Shown here: positions 1 through 63,441 of the stretch, one piece after another
Numbering within the stretch: position 1 is the first letter of the stretch
Layout: each line of letters starts with the position of its first letter
Assembly (NCBI GenBank): GCA_000934665.2
Contig: KZ538413.1
Coordinates: 1-64,000, forward strand
Source of the DNA: Catajapyx aquilonaris
Lineage: Eukaryota
Direction: 5' to 3'
Length of the DNA stretch: 64,000 bases
The notes under the pieces: generated by a model
Databases searched by the model: none
The model's input: only the letters and a program-made list of their open reading frames with translations
Told to the model about the DNA's origin: nothing
Program-made: the position numbers and the translations under genes

Positions 1-273
1 CTGATATCTTAAAACGGAATATGCCAAAAAAATCCAAAAAATATGGGCGAATTTATTATGTAGTTTCCAAAATGAAGGCTAGTTCCCCATTAGTGATTAA
101 AAGTAAGAATAACTTGCAATGACACCCGTCCATCATACACCCATCAAATTACTTTCATATCATCCTCGGAGGAACTTGATGTCGCTCGCACTCTGCCCAA
201 TGCACTTGAGAAGAATTATTACACTTTTGGGCTCGTGAACGAAGGAAATTCTGTCTCTATTTACTCATCAGAC

Positions 274-281
274 TATAAAAG
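274..281 (+). promoter_or_regulatory. Candidate TATA box for GR isoform A
   Basis: TATAAAAG about 35-40 nt upstream of ATG 313. Confidence 0.35.
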
Positions 282-312
282 GTGGAGGAGGAATTGCCGA
301 GAAGTGCAAACC

Positions 313-2262
313 ATGCTGTCTTGGAGACGAAACAAAGTTCTTGTCAAGTCTAGAGTTGAGACGAATAATTGGTTGCCTCTTCCAGTTTCATCTTCTTTTT
401 GGTTCGTTCTCAGACTAACCAAAATTGTTGGCTTCTTTCCTGCCAAGCATGTATTGAGAAGAGGGAGGCCTACACCACATGTGAGTAATACACGTAACTA
501 ATGCCAATAATACATATTTCAGAACGTATGTCCTCTTGATACCGATGCAAATCAATACGGAGACCACTCGACGTATGCCCCAGGGGGATCATTAGGGGTA
601 GTTTTTAACTGGGAAGGTTTTTAGCACATTGGACTTGACCTCCGAGGTCATCCTTGGCCGCAGATGCGAAAGGCAAGAAAGCAGGAACCCCGGATGTAGC
701 ATCGATCGAGGGAGAGATCGAGGATCGAGGGAGAAAAAGAGGGACTTCATGCACATGCAATATGCTCCATGTTACAGGTATTCCAACATAGGTTTCTCGA
801 GAGAACATAGGTATAAAAGGTAACTACTAAATCCTATGGAAAAGTATTTCATAACCCGAGCAACGCCGGGTATCCTGCTATTCTTACTAAAATGCCACAC
901 ACGCAGTGAAACCATTATGATAAACTTACTAACTTTATAGGTCGTTCTGCTGGGGTTGGGCATGATATTTTCAAGGTCGCCTCCAAATTTCATTATTGTG
1001 ATTCCTCACATTGACGCAAGTCTAATGGAGATAGAGTCCCGAGAGAGTAGATTCGGTTAGGTTGGATTGGGCAAGGTCAGTACAGTATAACTAGGTTAGG
1101 TTAACATAAAATTTATGTTACCTTAACCTAATATTAAGTTGGCATTCCGAGAATCGAAGGGACCAGAGGAAAACTGAATGGTATATAATTATCGATTATA
1201 TCAATGTACCGGTACCGTAGTTATTCTATTTTAAATCGTCGTGTATAACGTGTTGCATGGTGTCAGGATGACCAAAAAATCTGTACCATCCTTTGTTGAA
1301 AAAATAGCCGAAGAACCTTATCTGGATTTTAGCACATTTCCTCCTATTTTGTTCATAACGATGTCAGCGTATGGTTGACCGTCGGGTTCCATTTGAATAT
1401 TTGAATCATCCTTGTACAGTAGTGTTACTGTATAATCCCAATCTCGATTTTTTTGTTTTTTTTGTTTTTTTTTGGTCCTTAGCGCATTTGGATTTCCTGG
1501 GAAACCTTGTGGAACACCATAATGTCCTCGTTTGTGATCATCCTGTGGATTGCCAATGCGGTTAGAATACGCGGGGACGTCGGTAGCAGCACAGACACAT
1601 ACGTAAAGAAGGGGTTAAAAATGATCACCCTTCCTGCCTTCGTTATGGAGATAGCGTGGACCACGGCTTATTGCCCTCGTCTCTGTCGCCTGATCCACCG
1701 CTTTCACCTCCTCGACTGCCGCTATTCCTGGCTTCAGGTGACTGCTAATTCAAAGGCCTTGTCCGCTTACACCATTATCAGGACCGTAGTTCCTTTAATA
1801 GCTCTTCACACATGCAAAGCTATGAGCGCAGTGCTGAAGCTAGTTGAGCATTGGAACCAAATGAGCTCCATTCAATTGGCCTCAAAGATGTTCCTCTACC
1901 TGATGCTGAACGTGAAGAACTTACCCACCAGCCTGACAGTGCTGATGTGCGATGCCTTGTGTACCCGCATCAGGTCCTTGGCCCTGTCCTGGAAGCGCTC
2001 GCCTGCCATTGTCTACTGTCCCCGGTCAATGTCGCTCTGCCACAGGTGTCACCAGGACCTGCTCCAACTGGTGTCGGAAGTGAACCACTGCATGGGAGTA
2101 ATGCTTCTCCTGGATTACGTCACTGCTCTGGCTTATTTGGCGGCTTACCTCTACTACCTGGTGACTGGAGCGCACAATATGGCCTTCCAATTGATGTCCG
2201 CCTTGGAGTGGGGGCTAAGGCTTCTCGTCCTCACCCTTCTGTTGGACAGGACCTCCGCCGCC
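313..2262 (+). CDS. Gustatory receptor (7tm_7 family), N-terminal coding region A: exons 313-480 and 1483-2262; predicted to splice to shared exons 6272-6742 (410 aa)
   Basis: ATG 313; donor GTGAGT at 481; polypyrimidine acceptor TAG ending 1482; frame continuous; donor GTGAGT at 2263 (phase 0). Multiple hydrophobic helices and the GR-type motif CHQDLLQLVSEVNHCMG. N-terminus LRLTKIVGFFPAK resembles LRFTKAAGRFPAK of region B. Confidence 0.8.
855..881 (+). mobile_element. Degenerate Helitron 3' end in GR intron
   Basis: Hairpin CCCGAGCAACGCCGGG followed by a decayed CTAG; same hairpin as at the end of the intact element 16922-17295. Confidence 0.5.
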
Positions 2263-3744
2263 GTGAGTATACACTCATTCGCACTCTTGCTGATCTACTT
2301 GGAGTATAGGCTATACGTACCTTACCGTCCCTCTTTTCAAAGGTGTCGCTCGGTCATTCCGGTCAGACATCGTAGACATTTTCAGGTATTAAACGTTACA
2401 CCTTCTTGGCGCATAAACCAAAGTAATTACTCGAAATTTTTGTCAAGTTTTATATCTTTTCAAAACTTGGAACTGATTGTGTCCTGATTATCAGTCGTAT
2501 CTGTTTATTTATTTATTTGAGGGACCGCGCCGATTCCAAAAGCTTTTGATCGTCCGATTTTGCCATGTCAACTTAATGAGGCATGGGGCATACTATTAAG
2601 GAATGAGGTTGTGTCTCAGTGCAATGTTTGACCTTCATAATTATGAGGCTGGGAATATAAGTGGCAAGGTGAACCGTACGTTATTGTTGTATGTGAGCAT
2701 GATCCAAACAACAAATTAGTGCCAAAGCAATAAATGACCCAAAATGCCAAAAAGTTCTATAAGTATTTCGTTTCGGTTCATCTTTATTTCGAAAAGGCTG
2801 CTCAATTTTAGCAAGGTCCGCAAATAAAAGCATGCCTACATATTGTCCATTTTTGAGGGCGAAAAAACGATTGTCTCTGATTATCCCGTTTATTACGAGT
2901 ATTTCAGAAATAAAAATCCACGCGATCGCGATCGGTTTGAGACACACTTTATCCAAAACTACTGTATTAAATGTTGTTAAATTTTAGCCGTTTTGTTATG
3001 AGCTACCTTTGCTCTAAAGATCATGCGTCTGTATTATCTATTATGTCCAAGAATGCAATTAATTGCATTTAAAAATTACATTACAACGTGAAGTTTTTTT
3101 TGTCTCTCGGGAAGAGTAAAACATTATGCACTCAGCACAGCTTCTTGACCATGGGTCCCTCATTTGTTTTGTAGGGGGACATACGGTACCTTTCGGGAAC
3201 ATTGGGCAACTTCCTAGGGTTACATGTATTATACATTTTAATGTGGTATATCATTCGGTGATAATAAGCTCACCCTCACAGTGGTATGTGCCAATATCTC
3301 ACAGGAATATATTACAAACTCCCTATTTTAAAACTCAGATTAGTTTAATTCGTGCCGGAATTATCAATCAATCAATCAATTTATTTATTTACTGTATTTT
3401 ATTTTACCTCATTGCATCGGCGCAATGAGGGACTTACATCCCGTACATTTTAGAACACTAATAGACTAATAATAAGAGGGGTCCCTGCTCGGAAGTAAAT
3501 AGATCTTTGACATAATCACACCGGATGCCCAGTGTCCTGGGGGCGGAGCACTCAGAACCCCAGCACAGCCTATATACTGTATAAAGAAGAAACAATGTTG
3601 CAACCAGAAAGGTAATTTAACAACCAGCTGGGGAGGAGGGGAACATAATAGGTAGTTTGATATAATTTTACAGGTTGAGGTGCCATTTGGCCACATACAG
3701 AGCTTTGGTGATGTCTTTTAGTGGGGTAACAAACATAGATTACA

Positions 3745-4024
3745 CAGCATGCCCTATTTGCCTACCCCTCTGGCTGACTTGAGGCTGCGATTTAGCTCTG
3801 AAAACCGATCACTAATTGCGTCTATACCAACAAGAGTGTCAAGAAGACCATCCTAAATTGCATGATGCCGACCACAATTCCCACAAAACCTATAAACACT
3901 TTTATCGCAACCATCTGCCGGTGACACTGAAGATCCACCATTAGAAAGACCAACAAACCACCTCTGACACAGGCTGAAGCTAAGGTTCCACCCGGAAGGA
4001 GGTTTCTCCACGTGACTTTTGACA
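3745..4024 (-). repeat. Inverted, near-identical copy of GR exon B segment 5479-5756 with a 2-bp frameshift
   Basis: Reverse complement encodes SKVTWRNLLPGGTLASACVRGG...MVFLTLLLV, then a TA insertion; only scattered substitutions relative to 5479-5756. Confidence 0.95.
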
Positions 4025-5000
4025 ATTATATTTTATGAAGGGTAGGGGAAGGATAAGAAATTTAATAGTTGTTATCATTTACTTATACAACCGTAATAAT
4101 GCTGAGATTCGGCAAATTTGTTTAGCAAAATAATTTCGTCACATTAAAACCTGTAAAAGCGCTTTTACTTTAACTGAAACGTGTTTGTTGTAGACCTAAA
4201 TAACACGGCAGATTTTGTCTTCCCAAATCTGCAGTATTAATTCTTTCAGCTGTGAGTAATTCATGGTATGATAATATTTCAATAACTCACAATGCGTGTC
4301 ACATGTCTCTCACAGCTTTCTCGTGACGTATAATACAGATGGAATGCATATTTTATATTCAAATACCCGTGACTGACTGAAATACTCCTATCTTGCAGAA
4401 TATCGAGTGGAACTCATTCAACTCTTCATCATTATCTCCTTCCATTAGCCCACTTCCAAAAGGGACTGCCAACATTGTTAACGCGTCTATTAGTACTATT
4501 ACATAATCTTCTCTTATCCTGAGACAATCTGACATGCAAATCAATGCTCCTAAATCGTTAGGCAAAACAATGCCTGTCCAACTTCTTTAACAACCATTTG
4601 GTCATAATGCAGACTTCACTTTGGTATAGTGACATTTATTTCTGCTATAGTCTTGCAGGGCTCGGAAATACTCGGCTGCCCATCACTTATGTCACAGGGT
4701 TTTATTATTATGACACACTTCCAACAGCAATTCCATCAATCACCTTTCTATAGCGGGAGGGTCGAGCAAGTTGGTCCTAATGCGCTACTTTCAGTACTCA
4801 AGCTAAGTCGCATGGCATCATTATACTAAAAATTCCAATAATTAGGAGACGTGCCCTTGAATGCTGATTATAACTACCTGCATATTATTCAGTGTGTAGT
4901 TTCCAGTTGGGGTGGAATGCCTCTTACAGTCACATGTGAGTCAGGAGTATCAAAGGGTGCAAACTTCAAGGTTCATGAGAGTTGTATGACGGAGACAGGA

Positions 5001-6742
5001 ATGAAGAGAAGACACGTCCAAGTGGGCACGCGCTGGTCGACGGTCTCTAATAAGCCAAGATCTCTCAGAGGACCACCTACACCGCCAGAATCAGTGGTGC
5101 CTCCCCTTTTGCTGCTGACCCTCCGATTCACCAAGGCCGCAGGAAGGTTTCCGGCTAAGAATATCTTCCTGCACGCAGATCGAGGGCCCCAATTCCGATG
5201 GCTGTCCTTGGATGTGCTGTGGAGTTTTCTCTTCAACGTCTCAGTGATCTGCTACTTTTATGCACTCAGTTGCTGTCTGTGCCCACCACCGAAAGACAAC
5301 AACCCTCCTCCTGATCACACAATGGCTACTGATACTGACATAGCTGTGATCTTTGCATACATGGTTCTCGATGGGATTGAAACGACCATTGACATGGTGT
5401 CTGCATTTTTTTTCACGCCATCGCTGTGCAACCTTATAACACGCCTCATGGAGTCAGGCACCAAGTCAGGCTGCAGCATGTCTAAAGTCACGTGGAGAAA
5501 CCTCCTTCTGGGTGGAACCTTAGCTTCAGCATGTGTCAGAGGTGGTTTGTTGGTCTTTCTAATGGTGGATCTTCAGTGTCACCGGCAGATGGTTGCGATA
5601 AAAATGTTTATAGGTTTTGTGGGAATTGTAGTCGGCATCATGCAATTTAGGATGGTCTTCTTGACACTCTTGTTGGTAGACGCAATTAGTGATCGGTTTT
5701 CAGAGCTAAATCGCAGCCTCAAGTCAGCCAGAGGGGTAGGCAAAGAGGGCATGCTGCGGGAGGTCAAGTGTCATCCGTGGTACCCACATCACGACTACTT
5801 TTGGAAGCACCTGAGATATTTTTGTGAGCGACACCAGGGGCTAAGTGTGCTGACGAATGACGCCAGCCATAGCATTGGGTGGTACTCACTCATGTTCTAT
5901 CCGATCTGCATCTGTCGCATCGTCTTCTCTCTCTACTTGTGCCTGACTTCTCCTTTCTGGAATATGAAATATTTATTCGTCATTTCTGCAGCTGACAGCA
6001 TCCTTTTATTCTTTTGTAATGTCATCAGTTTGGCGCAGTTGCCTTCTCAGGTAGGCTATAGTATTCTACGAGTGAAGTACTCAAAAAATGAATATATTAT
6101 ACATGTTGCCCAATGGGTGAAATGCCCAATGTGTCTCTGTAATATTTATTAATTCATAGTAATAATGCCATACGTCTGGTAACATTTGAGTTTTACGTCT
6201 GAGATAATAAGATTATTATACTCGTATCACATTCCTTATTATACAATCTGTCCTATACTTTCATCACACAGGCCAACGCAGCATACGATGACCTGAGGCA
6301 GCTCAGCATGCTAGACCTTCCACCGGAATGTCAATTTCAGGTGATTCTGTTGTTATTGTTGGCTTTGTTTCCATTCGGTTGATAAAATAATATAAATCAA
6401 TTGATTGTTACGCAATATATTACAGCTGCAAATATTGCTGCAACGAATGTCCGGAACACCAGTGGAATTCACGGCTGCCAACTTCTTCTCCATCAACCGC
6501 CGCCTTTTGACTTCGGTTGGTAGCCTACACATGGCAAAACGTTCTGCACATACTGTGTAGAATATTTCGAAAATGTCAGAGAAAACGGCTATAATAATAC
6601 CTTCTATTATTCTCAGGTTGCAGGAGCAGTGACGACATACCTAGTGGTTCTCATGCAGTTCAAGGCGAGCGAATGTGGCCAATCAAGCTATGGTGCATCG
6701 GCAACGACAATCGCTTATAACTCGTCTTTTAATATCAATTAA
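5001..6742 (+). CDS. Gustatory receptor isoform B: exons 5001(or 4986)-6050, 6272-6340, 6426-6515, 6617-6742 (about 444 aa)
   Basis: Three phase-0 GT-AG introns near the C-terminus, the typical insect GR layout. Exons read ANAAYDDLRQ..., LQILLQRMSGTPVEFTAANFFSINRRLLTS and VAGAVTTYLVVLMQF (GR signature TYxxxxxQF); stop TAA 6740-6742. Confidence 0.93.
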
Positions 6743-7871
6743 GCATATATCCAATATTACAATAGTGTAAATGCCCATGGGCCATTGTGAATAATATTAA
6801 GACTTTTGACATCGGTACCGGTAGACCTACTCACGTATAAGATACAGTACACTACAGGGTGTTCAGAAAGACCCAACAAACTTTTAGGGTGACCCGAGCC
6901 ACCAAGAGCGACTTGCTGCAGTGGGTTGTCCAGAATGGTGCAAAGTAATAATGGCACATGTAAAATTAGCAAAAGTGGAAAAATGGTAAATAATTGCACA
7001 ACTAAAATAAAAAGTCCAGTTGTCGGAGAGGAAGGGCAGAAATGAATTTTTGCGCTTCCTGGTCGAATTAATGTCTGTAACCCAACATAACCATCCACAC
7101 GTAGAAATGCTGTAGATGCTTCTTCATTACAAGTGAGTTACCGTATTCGTTCTCCAGACAAAATTCATCTTAAGAGCAAGTCAGTGCATGTGCCAATAAT
7201 TAACGTTTCTGCCTATTTCTCATCATTTTAAACACTGTGGGGCAATACTACCCATGGATCCGAGTAATTACCCCAGGCCACAGCCATGCGTTTTAGAAAA
7301 TACATGTACAGCACTTCCATCTAAAAAGTTGCAAATGAAAACGTCAGAGGGGTCCAAACTGCACATACCTAGTATTTGTAAAATGTACGACACAATAATG
7401 TACGTAAAAGTCCCTTTCTAAAATGTAATTGCAACTTTCAACAACACGTAAGACACATAAGATGATGTGAATTGCAAAAGATAACTTTTGTCCACACCAT
7501 AGCTATGGTCCACACCATAATATTGTTTCTGATCACACTTTGACTGGCATTTCTCTCATGTGCTCGTAATAAACAAGGAGCCAGGGAGTAGCACTATAAT
7601 TTATTGGAATCATTCTTGAACTTTCAGAATAGGAGATACTGACGTGGGCGAGATTGCCTATCGCTCGTCATTACCCGACAGAAGTCCAACTATTGGAACG
7701 GTGTATAACGTGTATTACTAGTAATCCACTTTGTGTACTGTATAGTGCTACTGGGAACACGTGAGCAACACGACAATGCAATAGGGAGGCTGATAGGGGG
7801 GAAGGAAAGAAGAAATGTTAGTGAAGTATAAGTATAACGTATAGATAATACAGTAGTTATATGCTCTTCCT

Positions 7872-9151: not shown

Positions 9152-12100
9152 TTACAGCATCTGTAGGACAGAAATAATGTATTGTCGCATGCCCATCAGG
9201 TTAGGCCCCACAACAACATCATGTGTCGCTTGGCCGTGCCCGTTCTTCAGCAAAAGATCAGAAACCAATTCTCCTTCCAAGTTGAACAAGTGGATGCGAG
9301 CTTTTCCTTCCCGCTGTAAAAAATTATATACAGAAATATCAGTCAAATTTCACCACAATAGTTAAAAGCAGACAGTAGGCCTACATTGTAGCGTAGACTG
9401 TGTAGACTTGTAGAGCAGCAAAAAATTATCAGATTGACCTGGGGTAGGTTTACACGACTAAAACCAAATCAATTTCATCTTACAACGTGCCCTATGCCCG
9501 ATTGCACCAACCGCAATTACCCATCCGATAGCTCCTACGTCCTAATGGATCGTTAGGAGCCCTTTTAACTTGCGCTAACGATCTGTTAGGAGCTATCGAA
9601 TCGGTAATTTCGTTAACTAGTGCAATCGGGCATAGAGGTATAATATTGGATTGCACATTGTGCATATTTCATTTAAAATACCTAGCACCAAATGTAGTTG
9701 GGCCACAAAGCACCATCAATATTATTACAAAACTCTAAACTTGTTACAGTCCAGTTAACAGCAAAAAGTTATGCACACATTCCAGCAGGTTCTCTCCTGT
9801 GTCTATACTGTAGGCTACGTATATTATAATGAATCATACGATTGCCACCTACTCGCGCATGAAGATTATTCGTAACCTTGTACCAGTAGGTCTAGTTCAT
9901 GGATTGTTATCAAAGTATGTGACAATTTGGATGTATTTGGATTTTTTTATGCTCGTGACCATAATATCACAAGGCTGTAGTGTAGTCTATTATTTTCTTA
10001 TTTCCATTTCAATCCAAACAGGCTCACAACATTTGCATTGCTTCTGAGGGCAAACACGTATATTAATTATTTATCACCAAAAATCATCTGGATACTACAT
10101 TATTTTTATCTCTGCAGTGCTGTGGGACAAAAAATAGTTCAAAACCTAATTCCAGTAATCAGGGAAGTTCTATTCGATGTACAGTAGCAGTGCTGGCCAA
10201 TAATCGAGGCAACCTCCAGCGACATTTTTCCGAAGCGGCAGAAGAAGGAATCGCAGATAAGCATTCTACAAGCCGGGCGAGCCAGATTCCTTCTTCTGCC
10301 GCTTCGGAAAAATGTCGCTGGCGGTTGCCTCGATTATTGGCCAGCGCTGTACAGTACCAATTCCTTTTCACTCTAACAAAACAAAATGGGTTCATCCTGT
10401 TACGTCTGGGCGATATTCCCTCAATTAATTCATTACTCAAATAGTGGGGACCAGAGTGAGCTCGGAAAAAGTAGCTGCTTAGTTGTCTCAAGTACCAAAC
10501 CTCAAGAATGACTCTGGTAGAAACATGACACTTCAGAACAATGATGAGCTGAATGATGAATGAAGTTGGGCAGAGCAGTATCACCACAATTTCGGCGATA
10601 AAAGTTCATATAGCTATACAAATGTACAAGTATTGGCAGAGCTACTGTGTGTCAAAAAAGAGCCAACACATACTGTGCCATTCGAGTTTCATAAGCCCGA
10701 GGTCATTGGGCACATCTTTTCAAAATGTGTGAAATTGTTCTTTTGACCTATATTGCTTCAAAATATTATTCACATATGAAAAATGAAGAATCACAATGGC
10801 ATGCTTTGTAATTTCTGGCATTCAGCATAATACACCTCCAAGAAGCTTCTCAGTCACTTATCTTGTAGAGATTACTTGACCTCCAAGAGAGAAAATATAG
10901 CCTAGGCTATCATAATAATCTGAACAATTTCAATGTGACCAACATTTTTAACCCTGATCCACTGGCAACGTGAACAAAATCTTCAGAAATAATTGAAGAA
11001 AAAAAGGAGTTGCGATTATTTTAGGGCAAAACTCACCATAGCAATGCATTCCACCTTCAGACCACCCTGCTTTGCAATGTTACCAAGCAGGGCACTTGCC
11101 TCTGTGGTCCATCCTCCTTCTTCAGCCTTTGGATTCACACCCGCAAGACGGCAGTGGGTGACAAGGGGTGGCACGTTCTCACAGTGCTGGGGAAGGTTGA
11201 CCATATCCTCCAGGTCTACTCCACCTTTGTTTCCAAAATCCATGTACTCTATGGTCAAAGGGTCCATGGAGATGACCTTAGCTCGGTACCACCCGCCTTC
11301 ACATCTGGCTGCAACCATACGCCCACAATGAAGACCAGCTGGGTCAATGGGTGATATAGAACTGCACTGCTGCTCCAACACAGCAGCCATGGCTTTGAGG
11401 ATTTCTGCATTGCTTGAGAGATGTAGCCATATACTAGAAGGGGAATCAAAATGAGCCACAGCGCAGCTCAATTTTTCACCCTTCCTTGGTGAAAGAGCAG
11501 CAGGTTCATCAAATGGTGTGGGCATAGGGTAATTATTTCTCGGCTCAGGCCCTGAAGTGGCAGATTCAGTCTGTCCTTTTGCATCTGTCTTGGAAGGCTC
11601 ATCCTCCAGCATCTCTGGATCCTTGCATCCATTCTTTGCAGAACTACTTTCTTGGAAATTGGATCCTCTCTTGCCTCCACCCCGTCCTCCATAATCTTCA
11701 TTTCGGTTGGGTCCCTGCTGCTCACATCCTTCAGTTGCAGCAATGTTGTAGTCTGTTTGATCAAGTCCTTGTGAGTTGCTAGGTCTGCCGCTGTCATGTT
11801 TGTTAGGCCCATTCCTATAACCCATAGACTTACCATTTAAGTTTTTGCGTTGTTCATTCCCATCCTGAAAGCCTTGGGTGTCATTCATCTCATTGCTTCC
11901 ATCCCTCTGGTCACTGTTGCCCTGAGGCCGACTCCCATCACATTGAAAGTGGCCTCTGCTACCACGCTGTCCTCGCCTTCTCTGCCTTCCTCGACTTGCC
12001 TGATCATTCTCTCCACCCCTCATCTTGTTAGATCTGCCACAACCTCTAGGGCCCTTTCCCACCTCATGCCATGGAAAACTGCAGTGAGGAAAGGACCACG

Positions 12101-13051
12101 GGTGACTCCTGGCAGCTTCAGCAGATGCTTGGGTTCCTCTCTCAAGTGCCCTGGTCAAAATAAGTACCATTACTACCCTGATGCAATTATTATTATGTGC
12201 ACAACTTTCTCTTTAACTCTGAGTCATTCATGCTCACCTGTCTTATGAGAAGGGCAGTATAGCATTTTATATTTTCTTTTAGAGGCAGTGCAAAGGAGCA
12301 TGAGATGGCACAGGCAACAACATAACACTGGCATAACAGTGTTTAGCAGACATCAGCACTAAAAGGTAGCCTACGAGGCATTTGAACCTTATGAAATTCT
12401 GATAAGGTACTGGCATAGCAATGGACCAAGGCTAAAGAGTCGTAGGAGGTCTACTCTTACATGCTTTTCCAGAAGGGACTTCTCACCAGGACACTTTTGG
12501 CCCAGGTGGCATAAAGGCATGTGACACTATATGCTTCCATAACAGATCTACTGCTGCTTTGTGATGGGCCCAACAATTTGTTCATTGACAATACATTTGA
12601 CTGGCTCATGCTCCCTTTACTCATCCTTGTATATCACATGATCAAAAAATATTTAAGAACTTGTTGAATCAACAATGCAGTAGGTCAGCCACAGCAACAA
12701 TTTCTTCATGTTTAGATCTAATGTAGGCCAGTAACCAAGCCTGTCTAAATAATATATCATAACTTTTTGGGACAAGCAAAAACAAAGAAGATTTACCGGT
12801 ACATTATTAGTAACAGTAAAAGGGTATCTTGATAGTTCAGGAGGAGTATTTGAATAAAAGGCACATGAGAAATTGGTGACAATAACAAATTATGTTATAC
12901 GGTATGATTTCACGAAAGATTTTGCACAATTTTCTGTCGTCATGATCACAAAGTGTGTGATGCTTTGTGCATGGACAGAACTGGAAAATCAGCCAATGCA
13001 ACTTCGGCGTCACCTGTTTTTATAAACTTTCCCTCTGTCCATTATTTTGGC

Positions 13052-13132
<81 letters not shown>

Positions 13133-14959
13133 GCGGACCCGTAGCCAAAATTTGGCAAAACCTGCAATGAGGACAATGGGAATGAAAAAAATGGGATGAG
13201 AGGCCTCTCGGAGTGACAACTAAGATATAGCGTATATCTGGTCGTAAGACGGGGTTGAAAAATTTAGTGGCATTGAATCAGTGGACAGTCATACTGTAGG
13301 CTATATTCTTGAGTCGGACATGAGAAAAGTCTTTTTCATAAAACCTCGCAATATACAACATTCTGTGTGAAGACTCTGTTGTTGGAGAGCAATGTTCCTT
13401 GTCGAGCAGTAGGAGTAGTGAATACTTTGACCTGACTTGGGTTGCGAGACCGGGACTGTGCCACATACAGCTGGCCGACAGGTTCATCCATCAGGTAAAT
13501 GCCCACGTGCTCAAAAGTCTGGCGCTGCGACTTGTTGATCGTCATGGCATAAGCTGGAATGATAGGAAACTGGCGGCGTTTGAGAACAAAAGGCATATTG
13601 ATGTCACTGGGAGCTAAGGTAATTCGGGGCAAGAAAACGACATGGCCGCGATTGCATTCCGACACTATTTCGGCAGCAATGAAATTAGCATGGAGCCCAG
13701 TGACCAATAGGCGACTGCCGTTGTAGAGGCCTTGTTTGGGATCGAGATTTCTTAGCAACATCACCACCACTCCTTGTTTCAGCAACAATTTATGCGGCGG
13801 CATGCCTGAGGGAGTGAGTTCATGCAAAAACTCTGGTGGAAAATTGAGGACGTCGTGTGGATCCTCGGAAACGACTGAATCGGAACTGTAATAGACAACA
13901 GACTGTGAAGGGAGTTTGTCAATAATGGATCGATTCATTTCAAGAGTTTTTTTGTTGGTAGGAGCTAGAATTACTCTCTTAGCAAGGTCTGCGACAGGAA
14001 TGTTGGATAAGTTGTCGCCGTAAATGGCTTCGATCAAATCGACTCTTGCAACCATTTGCGGAGGGATTTCAACGGAATCGCATGGCAATCCAGGTACATC
14101 TGGAAGACTCCCGGATCCGATGTTTAGTAGCCACGCGTTGTGTTCATTTTCCCCAGCGCTGCGCATGTTGGTGGTCAGAGCGAGGTGACTCGGGCCTCCA
14201 GAAAATGAATAGCTTCGTCGGGAATGGATTGGGTTAGAGGATGGCGTGCTAAGCGATGAGCTGCAGCGTCTGCCTGACGAATTCTGTCCAGGGACTCCTG
14301 ACTTTGCTTTGCTAGCCATCTAGCCTTGCGTGCCTTAGCCATCCGACGCTTTGTAGCAATGGGATCCTCCTCCTCCTCGTCAATTGTGCGGGTTAGAGGT
14401 TGGCGTGCTAAGCGATGAGCTGCAGCGTTTGCCTGACGAATTCTGTCCAGGGACTCCTGACTTTGCTTCGCTAGCCATCTAGCCTTGCGTGCCTTAGCCA
14501 TCCGACGCTTTCTAGAAATGGGATCCTCCTCCTCGTCCATTGTGCGGGTTGTGAGGATATGAGGCACTGAGCAGGTTGTGAGGACGTAAGGTACTGACCA
14601 CCGACAGAATAAAGCGACCATACTCTCCACTGCGCAGTGAGAAGTGAGTGTGTGGGCCACTGACCCACCCCACAACCCGCCGCCCCCTACCCCCGGCCTG
14701 ATGAGAAGGTGGCAGCCCTCACCCGGGGCCTGTATTGGCGGGAAAGGAAATAGGTGGCAGTTAGGACTTTTGGCGGGAAGGGGAAAAGGCGGCCAGATGA
14801 ATTCGTGCCGTGACTCACAGGTGGCAGCACTCCCTTGGCTGGCTTGGCTTGGCTGCCAAGGGAGTGCTGCCACCTTTGGGTCACGGCAATAATTTCTTCA
14901 GGCCGTGGTGGCGTTCCGGATGGTGGCGTGTTTCAGACAAGGCTATTATTATAGGGGGA

Positions 14960-20989: not shown

Positions 20990-21093
20990 NNNNNNNNNNN
21001 NNNNNNNNNNNNNNNNNNNNNNNNNNNNNNNNNNNNNNNNNNNNNNNNNNNNNNNNNNNNNNNNNNNNNNNNNNNNNNNNNNNNNNNNNNNNN
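20990..21093. other. Assembly gap beside poly-C/poly-G; a second gap is at 22974-23078
   Basis: N runs. Confidence 1.
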
Positions 21094-22945: not shown

Positions 22946-23461
22946 ATACATCAATGGGGGGGGGGGGGGGGGGNNNNNNNNNNNNNNNNNNNNNNNNNNN
23001 NNNNNNNNNNNNNNNNNNNNNNNNNNNNNNNNNNNNNNNNNNNNNNNNNNNNNNNNNNNNNNNNNNNNNNNNNNNNNNACGCCAGCATGCACCCCCCCCC
23101 CCTCCCCCATCAGCTGCCATTCAAATACATGTAAACATGTTATTCACTCCTGATGAAAAGCAGTTTTTATACCAACAAAAAAAGCATCAAGCGCATGTAC
23201 TGTACATACTTACAGCATAATTTCTTTTGTTGAAAACTGTTGGATAAGCTGAGGTTGAATAATTCTGAGTAGACCTATAGCCATGTAATAACCGAAGGAG
23301 AATTCACTTGGTTATGTGGCTTACTTGTTATTTGCAATTTCCTCCCTCCCCTGGTCCATCAGTTAATTTGCTCTATGTTGGTACCTTTTTGACCATTCTG
23401 CAGCATGTAGGGAGTGAAAAAAAAGGCTCAATGTTCAGTGGCAAAAATTGCATGCACCATT

Positions 23462-61056: not shown

Positions 61057-63441
61057 TTACCATTGCCGAAACAATAGAATTTTCCAAAAAAATTCGATTA
61101 CCCTGGTAGAAAATGCCCACTTAGGTGCGTCAGGCCCAAAATGTGGCACCCTGGCCTTTTGGGGGGCTTGGAAAGTTAAGTCCAAATTGGTGGCAGAATG
61201 CGTAACAAGAAACGGTTCTTCCGGTAGCCCCCGCAGTGAGACTGACGGGCAATAAAAACAGGCTGCTGGACGTATGTTTCTGATTTACTCTTTTACGATC
61301 CCTTCCGCGACAAGTCCCTACCCTCCCCGCCTTCCCCTAGAAACCCTACACAAAAAAAGAGGGGACCATGTAGAAAAGGCGAAACAGGTCCAGAGTTTGT
61401 TAAAAACAGCGTCATTCATGGAAAAGGAGCGTCAACAGGTGCCTCCTGGTGCGTCCTCGTCTTCTATTGGATCGGGGGGGGGGGGGGGGGGNGGGGGGGG
61501 GCTCATTGATTCTGGCTGGACTTTTCGTTTTACGGTGGCCAGCAGTGTATGGTGAGCAGCAGACAGTATTAGGTTGTCGGATGAAGGCTCCTTCGGCGGA
61601 CACTCGGAATCTTGTTTGACGGTTAGTGTGTTGTCATTTTCTTGTGAAACGTGCAAACAATGGAAGAAAATCGGAATGCTTGGCTGACGCTTTTCTTATA
61701 TTCTTTTTGGTACCCTCGGGCTCTATTTTAAAAATGTGACTTATCCTGCGATAAAAACATTTTGAAAGTATGTTAAATTTGGGCTAAATAATGTAGGTCG
61801 ATAGAGACTCATGCCATTTTTTCAAAGCGTGATTTTTTTAAAAAAGTGTTCAAAAATTGGTTTCAACCTTTGCCTATACACTAGAACTGATATCGTTTAT
61901 GGTTAGCAATATAAGCAGTTTTTCGGGCTGATTTCATTAGACTGAAAAGGGCGGCAGGGTGACTAGTGATTTTGACCAGAACCACTTACGATTCAATCCC
62001 CGGACAGGACGAAGGGATTTGCTCATTATGAAAGAAACTTGATGGGTTTTCTCCATGTTCCCATGAATTTTCTTGAAATTTTCTTGTTTCGTGACACTAT
62101 CAAAATCCAGTAATATTGAACTACAATTTAATCCGGATGGGAATCGAAAATGTCACCAAAGAGGACACAGGCATACCATGGGTTATCATCATCATCACCT
62201 GTAAATATCAGGGCTTGAAATAATTTTTTAACTTAAGTGATTTTTACTTAATGTGATGCAGTGACCACAATCAATTCCAAAACTGCAAACTTTTTTTAAA
62301 TTACGTTTTATTCGTTACTAATGGGCTGTGAAAATGGCAAACTCGCGTATGCCATAATTTTAAAATTTCTTAATAAGGCTCATCCTGCTGACCAGATAAC
62401 CCATGCAGGATGCAGCTTGAATGTTTGGCGAAATCTCCAAAAAGTAAACAAGTATGAGAAATTCGTACGCAGTCTAAATCACAGGGCAGTGCGTATCTTT
62501 CTCACTATACCCTGCATATACGCACAAGGAATAACTGATCAATGGAATCGAAAATGGCACACGTTATACCTATTGCAAATGAGACGATTATACTGTGCTA
62601 CTGCGTCTGTATTCACGTATGAGGTCACACGTGGACGAAACTTGTGAAGTTAGTGTGACTGAAAATTCCAAGCACAATCCAGTTGTCACGAATTTGTTAG
62701 TACACTTCATATGGAGCACACGTTTGCTTCACTGCCTTCTCCTGGCCCTTTGTTAATGACGTACTCGGCATGTACTTTTTAATCTACTCTTTGGCTTAAT
62801 TATTTAAAAAAAACTCGTACCAAAACAATATAGCAAGTCTACTGATATGAATACTAGGCGGAAACTTTTACATTTGAAATATTTTAGCACAAAAAGTGTT
62901 ACGTCTTACATAGGGTGACAGTAATTGCCGAAGTCCTCACGATAAGGAGATTCTTTGGCATCTTATAAGATAAAAATACTCTTAATTGTAACTATCTGTC
63001 TGACAGGTAATTAAATTACGATTACAATGTAAGAATTGGCCGTAAGAAAATATCCTGCCGTGCATCTCGCCCGTCAAGCAAGCTTGCTAGACATATAGTG
63101 TGATATACAGGATGTTCCCCGTAAACAGTGGTAACTAATCAAAACTTAATTGCGTCACACGCAGTAATTAAGACTTGCCGCTAAAAATAATGGAGATGTT
63201 ATGGCATTAAAAAAATAGTTTCATTATAGGCCAAGGAGATCTCCCTAAGGTGACGTAGATTCGGAGTATATGAGTAGACTAATAATTAATTATTGTTCCG
63301 CTTCCATTCCACATTTCAGTGTATGGTAAAGATTAGGGCATGAAGCGGGTAGTGAAGCGTGACACCTATTTCAACATGTGGCATTCAGCCATTCTGATGT
63401 TCTTAATGTCCCTATTGTTCCAGGCGCCATTGTGTATCATT

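Follow-up and report, generated by a model that had tools for sequence, protein, structure and literature searches.

A candidate receptor gene with proposed alternative 5′ coding units

The subject of this study is a 64,000-nucleotide stretch of the Catajapyx aquilonaris genome (NCBI GenBank assembly GCA_000934665.2, contig KZ538413.1, positions 1 to 64,000 of the forward strand; hereafter ‘the window’), and within it a putative gustatory receptor (GR) gene in which a piece of one large coding exon, exon B, is present a second time, in inverted orientation, upstream of that exon. Exon B is held in the open reading frame (ORF) 4842–6152 on the forward strand, and runs from a methionine codon to the donor CAG/GTAGGC at 6050/6051 (Table 1). 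It is preceded by a second candidate coding unit, A, consisting of exons A1 and A2, and followed by three short exons, c1, c2 and c3, all in phase 0. A preliminary description of this stretch had joined the donor of exon A2 to these common C-terminal exons across an intron at 2263–6271, a gene model that agrees with the consensus donor, the matching phase and the single set of C-terminal exons. The donors at 2262 and 6050 are in the same phase (0), giving an arrangement of several large 5′ exons and one set of small 3′ exons common to them. When the window was searched by tblastn, no second set of C-terminal exons was detected (best non-self E-values of 3.4 for c1 and 0.68 for c3; c2 matched only itself), and a full-length A product would therefore have to splice 2262 to 6272, across both copies of the duplicated segment. 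Units A and B align weakly by BLASTP (34% over 47 residues, E 7e-6), with the alignment running across the A1/A2 junction, and exon A2 is, by its predicted protein, a chemoreceptor-like paralogue of exon B. As in the preliminary description, A and B are best read as alternative 5′ coding units of one gene. Core-promoter motifs upstream of exon B are given no weight here: the only ones seen are initiator-like TCAGT sequences at 4791 and 4889, and TATA[AT]A has no match in 4025–4986.

A motif of the seventh transmembrane helix (TM7), colinear Pfam matches below threshold and language-model similarity together suggest that the host gene encodes a very divergent gustatory receptor of the arthropod type. 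Arthropod gustatory receptors carry the C-terminal TM7 motif TYhhhhhQF, which the translation of the last exon (...VAGAVTTYLVVLMQFKASE...) fits; exon c3 ends ...TTYLVVLMQFKASE... followed by the stop codon. Exons were scored against Pfam singly, and the gathering score of the 7tm_7 family (PF08395) is 26.6 bits; c2 (E 0.015, 15.1 bits) and c3 (E 0.005, 16.6 bits) match adjacent, colinear parts of the profile, each under the gathering score when scored alone. Exon A2 has a weak match to 7tm_6 (E 7.3e-5, 22.4 bits; cut-off 25.8) and a weaker one to 7tm_7 (E 0.16, 11.7 bits, colinear over profile positions 40–278), the latter likewise under the curated cut-off. Exon B itself matched no Pfam family, even at E<=10. 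A word-seeded search of 5.8 billion proteins with exon B returned 0 matches, as did phmmer against 1.84 billion representatives at E<=0.001, and since sequence searches gave no relatives of exon B, it is language-model features that supply the pointer to gustatory receptors from this side. In the ESM Atlas, the first match of exon B scored 0.96 and 23 of its 30 matches fall in 7tm_7 arthropod clusters; for exon A2 the corresponding values are 0.95 and 22 of 30. In a crude Kyte–Doolittle scan (19-residue window, threshold 1.5), exon B has five strong segments and the short exons have none.

An inverted copy of an exon B fragment

The preliminary description had called 3745–4024 a near-identical reverse complement of 5479–5756, some 1.45 kb away from it, with a 2-bp frameshift and without obvious terminal inverted repeats (TIRs), and had taken the source segment to be coding. 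Each of these points holds. The two arms are identical in 272 of 280 aligned columns (MAFFT, BLASTN); BLASTN returns a single 280-column alignment with 97.1% identity and an E-value of 7.7e-133, a similarity far above chance. A total of 1454 nt separates the copy from the arm in the exon, and the latter lies inside the intact long exon B. Six substitutions (exon positions 5483, 5509, 5531, 5604, 5630 and 5745) distinguish the arms, together with one 2-bp indel, a TA at 3825–3826 that is present in the copy only. Repeat searching accordingly reports two adjoining inverted pairs, 3825–4024/5479–5678 (200 nt, 98%) and 3745–3824/5677–5756 (80 nt, 99%), offset by 2 nt relative to each other. Homology ends abruptly at both edges of the arms. 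No TIR or direct repeat flanks the copy at its junctions, the best pairs within 2263–4990 being 12–20 nt long and 78–93% identical; there is no target-site duplication at the copy, the junctions are blunt, and microhomology between the junction bases and the sequence beside the template, read directly from the sequence and the alignment, amounts to at most 1 nt. A BLASTN comparison of 3000–6400 with the whole window gave no third copy of the arm sequence.

The minus-strand reading of the copy matches residues 165–257 of exon B, a part of the protein that includes two strongly hydrophobic segments. Relative to the exon it carries three synonymous, two missense and one nonsense (GAG>TAG) substitution in addition to the 2-bp frameshift; three synonymous against three non-synonymous changes are too small a sample for inference on selection. 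Given the frameshift and the stop codon, the copy is not being kept as coding sequence, and of the two segments the exon is the parental one. A further reading, in which a whole inverted duplicate of exon B had decayed to the present remnant, was rejected: the ends of homology are sharp, and tblastn finds no weaker similarity to exon B alongside.

Table 1. Coordinates of the duplicated segment, its surroundings and the exons of the candidate receptor gene
Feature	Position	Strand	Basis or remark
Exon A1	313..480	+	Candidate Met to donor CAT/GTGAGT, phase 0; BLASTP alignment of A with B runs through the A1/A2 junction
Exon A2, 260 codons	1483..2262	+	Acceptor AG 1481-1482; donor GCC/GTGAGT (2262/2263), phase 0
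Left flank with low-copy repeat	3277..3744	.	Summed contig depth 92-159 vs ~25-34 single-copy
Inverted pseudo-copy of 278 nt of exon B	3745..4024	-	Alignment; both junctions spanned by read-derived contigs
Spacer (loop), single-copy	4025..5478	+	Presumed upstream region of exon B and first 493 nt of exon B coding sequence
Exon B, 355 codons	4986..6050	+	Met at 4986; donor phase 0; further in-frame Met codons at 4917 and 5001
Parental segment within exon B, frame intact	5479..5756	+	Two strongly hydrophobic segments, residues 173-191 and 212-230
Shared exon c1, 23 codons	6272..6340	+	Phase 0 at both ends
Shared exon c2, 30 codons	6426..6515	+	Pfam 7tm_7 profile positions 325-351
Shared last exon c3	6617..6742	+	TYLVVLMQF and stop codon; Pfam 7tm_7 profile positions 353-368

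In this DNA inverted repeats are common in themselves: further long pairs occur in the 64 kb. We counted 49 pairs of at least 60 nt lying within 6 kb of each other, many of which are offsets of one simple-repeat pair (14945–15040/20583–20678). The longest of the others is 29730–29975/30537–30782 (246 nt, 93%, spacer 561 nt), which could represent either a transposon with long terminal inverted repeats or a further locus able to form a hairpin. Two shorter pairs, 44891–44987/45120–45216 (97 nt, 96%, spacer 132 nt) and 10188–10252/10285–10349 (65 nt, 97%, spacer 32 nt), are in the style of miniature inverted-repeat transposable elements (MITEs).

Both junctions are present in read-derived contigs

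The copy was checked against sequencing reads by placing on the window the Logan contigs (de Bruijn assemblies) of three public short-read DNA runs, here X1, X2 and X3. Four DNA runs, all from one sample and one study, contain 91–94% of the sampled words of positions 1–7000; they may be the assembly’s own source data, and the check therefore covers the assembler and not the population or other individuals. A fifth run under the same species label (X5) contains almost none of the stretch, and its contigs match only high-copy repeats at 1–91 and 567–653. The search of public runs for this stretch listed no RNA run. The left junction, 3744/3745, is spanned with 0 mismatches by a 119-nt contig (3668–3786) in X1, X2 and X3, which extends 77 nt to one side of it and 42 nt to the other. 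The right junction, 4024/4025, is spanned together with the whole spacer by a 1620-nt contig (3942–5561), again with 0 mismatches; this contig includes 83 nt of each arm in inverted orientation, distinguished from each other by three mismatches.

For the middle of the arms there is a single, collapsed contig, which is the exon version (5532–5744) in X1 and X3 and the copy version (3757–3971) in X2. Its depth is 40–50 as compared to 25–34 in neighbouring single-copy contigs, and this roughly 1.5-fold excess points to two copies, as expected if about half of the 31-mers are common to both arms. The junction contigs have roughly single-copy depth (21–34), and contig ends lie at exactly 30 nt from the differences between the arms, where a k=31 graph of a true inverted repeat would put them. 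Among the contigs of X1–X3, none joins across, and thus skips, the insert. The same contigs contain variants within the sample in single-copy parts, a C>A change at 1009 (X2, X3) and a 9-nt deletion at 3015 (X3), which indicates heterozygosity or pooled individuals; contigs under-report variants.

Misassembly, which the preliminary description had listed as a concern, is highly improbable: while the assembly is a gapped short-read-type scaffold with runs of Ns at 20990–21093 and 22974–23078, and every run with this region stems from a single sample and possibly supplied the assembly itself, neither a chimeric join nor a misplaced haplotype sits well with a separate de Bruijn assembly of three runs that recovers both junctions without mismatch, with both arm ends in a single contig, with junction contigs at about single-copy depth and both versions of the arm middle recovered, or with 2.2% divergence plus an indel, which duplicating the same reads would not yield. 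The N runs are 104 and 105 nt long, respectively, and a further single N lies at 61492; these are scaffold gaps, none of them near the inverted repeat.

The two arms are predicted to form a stable hairpin

The preliminary description had proposed that a transcript of unit A crossing the intron at 2263–6271 would hold both arms and could fold into a stem of about 280 bp. Folding supports this: the predicted duplex of the arms has 273 pairs and a duplex energy of -540.6 kcal/mol, and in the minimum free energy (MFE) structure of 3745–5756 (-905.7 kcal/mol) the arms are fully paired. Since both arms lie inside the putative A intron, any pre-mRNA running from A to the common exons would contain a hairpin of about 273 bp. 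The copy is perfectly complementary to exon B in 139 of its 260 21-mers, with perfect blocks of 72, 68 and 46 nt. No 21-mer of the copy recurs elsewhere in the window beyond exon B, which makes exon B the only visible target. The duplex ends 294 nt before the donor of exon B and includes no splice site.

Origin and age of the copy

We read 3745–4024 as a neutral, local inverted micro-duplication of a fragment of exon B, and put the probability of this reading at roughly two in three. On this account a 278-nt internal piece of exon B would have been inserted backwards 1454 nt upstream, the fragment probably having been captured or copied in the course of double-strand-break repair or by a short replication template switch; after insertion the copy would have gained its frameshift and stop codon, and the arms would have diverged to the present 2.2% (6/278). 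A repair or template-switch origin fits better than capture by a transposon, because the fragment is discrete, inverted and blunt, lacks element termini and exists in exactly two copies. The per-generation mutation rate of arthropods is typically a few times 1e-9, and at such an assumed rate the age of the copy would be of the order of a million generations, roughly a few million. We consider the hairpin a by-product of the duplication; if it is edited or gives small interfering RNAs (siRNAs) at all, this would probably be incidental and not the work of an isoform switch shaped by evolution. The copy exists singly and is decaying, as its frameshift and stop codon show. A neutral recent duplication had been the fallback in the preliminary description, and is now the better-supported reading. 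The copy is ‘young’ only in a relative sense, and is probably fixed.

Several considerations weigh against neutrality. It is a default and not a result. Furthermore, arm divergence of 2.2% is far above the within-sample variation in single-copy parts (one single-nucleotide polymorphism and one 9-nt deletion), and the copy has consequently persisted for long, although neutral DNA can persist too. Finally, the geometry, with 273 pairs and more than half of the 21-mers perfect, is the one that a nascent hairpin-RNA (hpRNA) locus needs, and partial duplication beside a parent gene is a documented birth route of functional hpRNAs in Drosophila simulans (PMC10317233).

As to origin rather than function, the fragment could instead have been captured and carried by a transposable element of the Helitron or Pack type, which we regard as doubtful. 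A low-copy repeat lies immediately to the left of the copy (Table 1), and an ORF for a Pif1-type helicase, typical of Helitrons, is located at 13336–14319 on the minus strand. On the other side of the balance there are no TIRs, no target-site duplication and no repeated flank inside the window, Helitron end motifs having not been specifically searched for. The contig depth fits exactly two arm copies, the exon and this copy, which means that the fragment has not been amplified. To the right, the flanking sequence is single-copy and is joined to exon B within one contig, and the contigs beside the left junction, 3530–3696 and 3668–3786, are at single-copy depth (16–34). Contigs of the left flank break at 3428–3529, and they do not place the edge of the repeat relative to 3744/3745. 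The ORFs of this flank match no Pfam family, bar one chance-level match to HIPIP (E 0.21).

Could the hairpin be functional?

One functional alternative to a neutral duplication is a nascent cis-acting hpRNA locus, in which transcripts from the A promoter would be diced to siRNAs, the antisense strand derived from the copy would target the mRNA of isoform B, and B would be lowered as a result. What speaks for it is the position of both arms within the putative A intron, the extent of perfect complementarity with exon B as the only visible target, and the precedent of hpRNAs that arose by partial duplication adjoining the parent gene (PMC10317233); a long inverted repeat homologous to a protein-coding target, one of the features that define hpRNA loci, is present with arms of about 280 nt and 97% identity. 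The further defining features of such loci are that a single primary transcript holds both arms, that 21–22-nt siRNAs are made in dependence on Dicer-2, and that loss of Dicer-2 de-represses the target (PMC10317233). We nevertheless hold this alternative to be unlikely. Three AATAAA hexamers between exon A2 and the copy (2729, 2823 and 2909), in themselves a weak, chance-level signal, make it possible that A transcripts terminate early. Transcripts of GRs, a gene class with very low expression, are rare, and lariats of introns do not last long. The locus lacks a reciprocal element directed against A. The hpRNA networks documented in PMC10317233 belong to the testis and to systems of genetic conflict, and not to sensory neurons.

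Taste neurons are described as expressing several GRs together, in combination, and not a single receptor each (PMC5684318), so that no need for exclusion between the isoforms is known. Exon B would also require no masking in A transcripts, because it is a first exon without an upstream acceptor. Mutual exclusion of receptor isoforms has a low prior probability. The broader proposition that this is a hairpin-RNA locus caught at birth in a chemoreceptor gene, where one arm would be a working coding exon and the choice of the upstream promoter would yield siRNAs or heavily edited double-stranded RNA (dsRNA) against the downstream isoform, is in our estimate somewhat less probable still than the cis-acting siRNA scheme. 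If true, it would amount to an enforcement of isoform choice by RNA interference (RNAi) in a sensory neuron.

A hairpin acting at the level of the pre-mRNA, without RNAi, is a more remote prospect than either. It could serve as a substrate for ADAR and recode exon B, or its structure could alter the use of splice sites or promoters; the predicted intron–exon duplex resembles the pairing of an exon with its editing complementary sequence, and it is very stable, as the MFE given above attests. However, if B starts from a promoter of its own within 4025–4986, the B mRNA would hold one arm and editing would be limited to intronic RNA that is discarded. The duplex stops short of the B donor by the 294 nt given above and holds no splice site. 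The known docking and selector structures, like editing complementary sequences, are short and conserved.

Other features of the window

Downstream of the receptor gene, a 398-codon open frame on the minus strand (11016–12212) holds a Tudor domain (PF00567, E 9.9e-20) and probably belongs, as an exon, to a Tudor-domain gene that runs on the opposite strand; a search for its relatives gave one distant match only (P0001, E 1.5e-18). A long trinucleotide microsatellite at 13040–13130 gives poly-Leu, poly-Ile or poly-Asn frames. The helicase ORF at 13336–14319 (minus strand) and the adjoining ORF 14175–14897 (minus strand) make up a helicase fragment with a Pif1 2B domain (Pif1_2B, PF21530, E 3.2e-17), a type of helicase found in Helitron transposons.

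Two very high-copy repeats lie near the start of the window, at 1–91 and at about 540–850, with summed contig depths of 1e4 to 7e4 against about 30 for single-copy sequence, many variant contigs and internal deletions. The second of these, about 300 nt long, is located inside the A1–A2 intron (481–1482) and has the look of a short interspersed nuclear element or a MITE. Neither a tRNA (ARAGORN) nor an Rfam match at the gathering threshold was detected in the window, the high-copy repeats included.

Significance and comparison with known systems

Should the copy be neutral, which is the most likely case, it provides a clean and datable example of a small inverted duplication that sets hairpin-forming sequence beside its parent gene; hpRNA loci are thought to take their raw material from duplications of this kind. 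If the hairpin were processed, the locus would extend endogenous RNAi from the conflict systems of the testis to the choice of sensory receptors, and would represent a new mechanism of isoform exclusion at alternatively spliced chemoreceptor loci. Among the open-access papers listed by our searches, none described a GR with a hairpin, siRNA, inverted duplication or inverted repeat.

The predicted gene architecture is that of Gr39a, in which large alternative 5′ coding exons with their own start codons and phase-0 donors are followed by three short C-terminal exons in common, and the last transmembrane helix is carried, here by prediction, on these three exons. In contrast to Gr39a, unit A is here itself split by the intron at 481–1482, and the splicing pattern is predicted from the genomic sequence alone. 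The abstract on Gr39a describes no inverted exon fragment.

Functional editing complementary sequences are conserved, mostly short and imperfect, whereas the 273-bp duplex found here is near-perfect and young, and would favour promiscuous over site-specific editing. What the locus has in common with the editing complementary sequences of ADAR substrates, and with the intronic inverted Alu pairs of primates, is an intronic complement of an exon that could give dsRNA in the pre-mRNA (PMC4053975, PMC4053966).

How a single receptor of a tandem locus is chosen is still under study, for instance in ants (PMC12393541). The transcriptional interference described there for tandem odorant receptors (ORs) addresses the same question that is raised here, namely how one receptor of a tandem or arrayed locus comes to be expressed alone. 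The mechanism in ants is, however, one of read-through and antisense transcription and not of a hairpin from a duplicated exon, and it concerns ORs (PMC12393541), which follow a one-receptor rule; GRs are described as co-expressed.

The closest known system is that of the nascent Drosophila hpRNA loci formed by partial inverted duplication beside the parent gene. The D. simulans cases that arose de novo in this position include hp58 beside CG17385, the ballchen hpRNA from a partial 5′ duplication, and hp-tHMG-solo (PMC10317233). The C. aquilonaris copy resembles these loci in being a young inverted duplicate of a few hundred bp of coding exon, located near its parent gene and potentially giving rise to antisense siRNAs. 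In D. simulans the two arms usually belong to a transcription unit of their own, and measurements in testis covered siRNAs, dependence on Dcr-2 and de-repression of the target (PMC10317233); here, one of the arms is the functional exon itself, the host is a putative chemoreceptor gene, and the locus is known from DNA.

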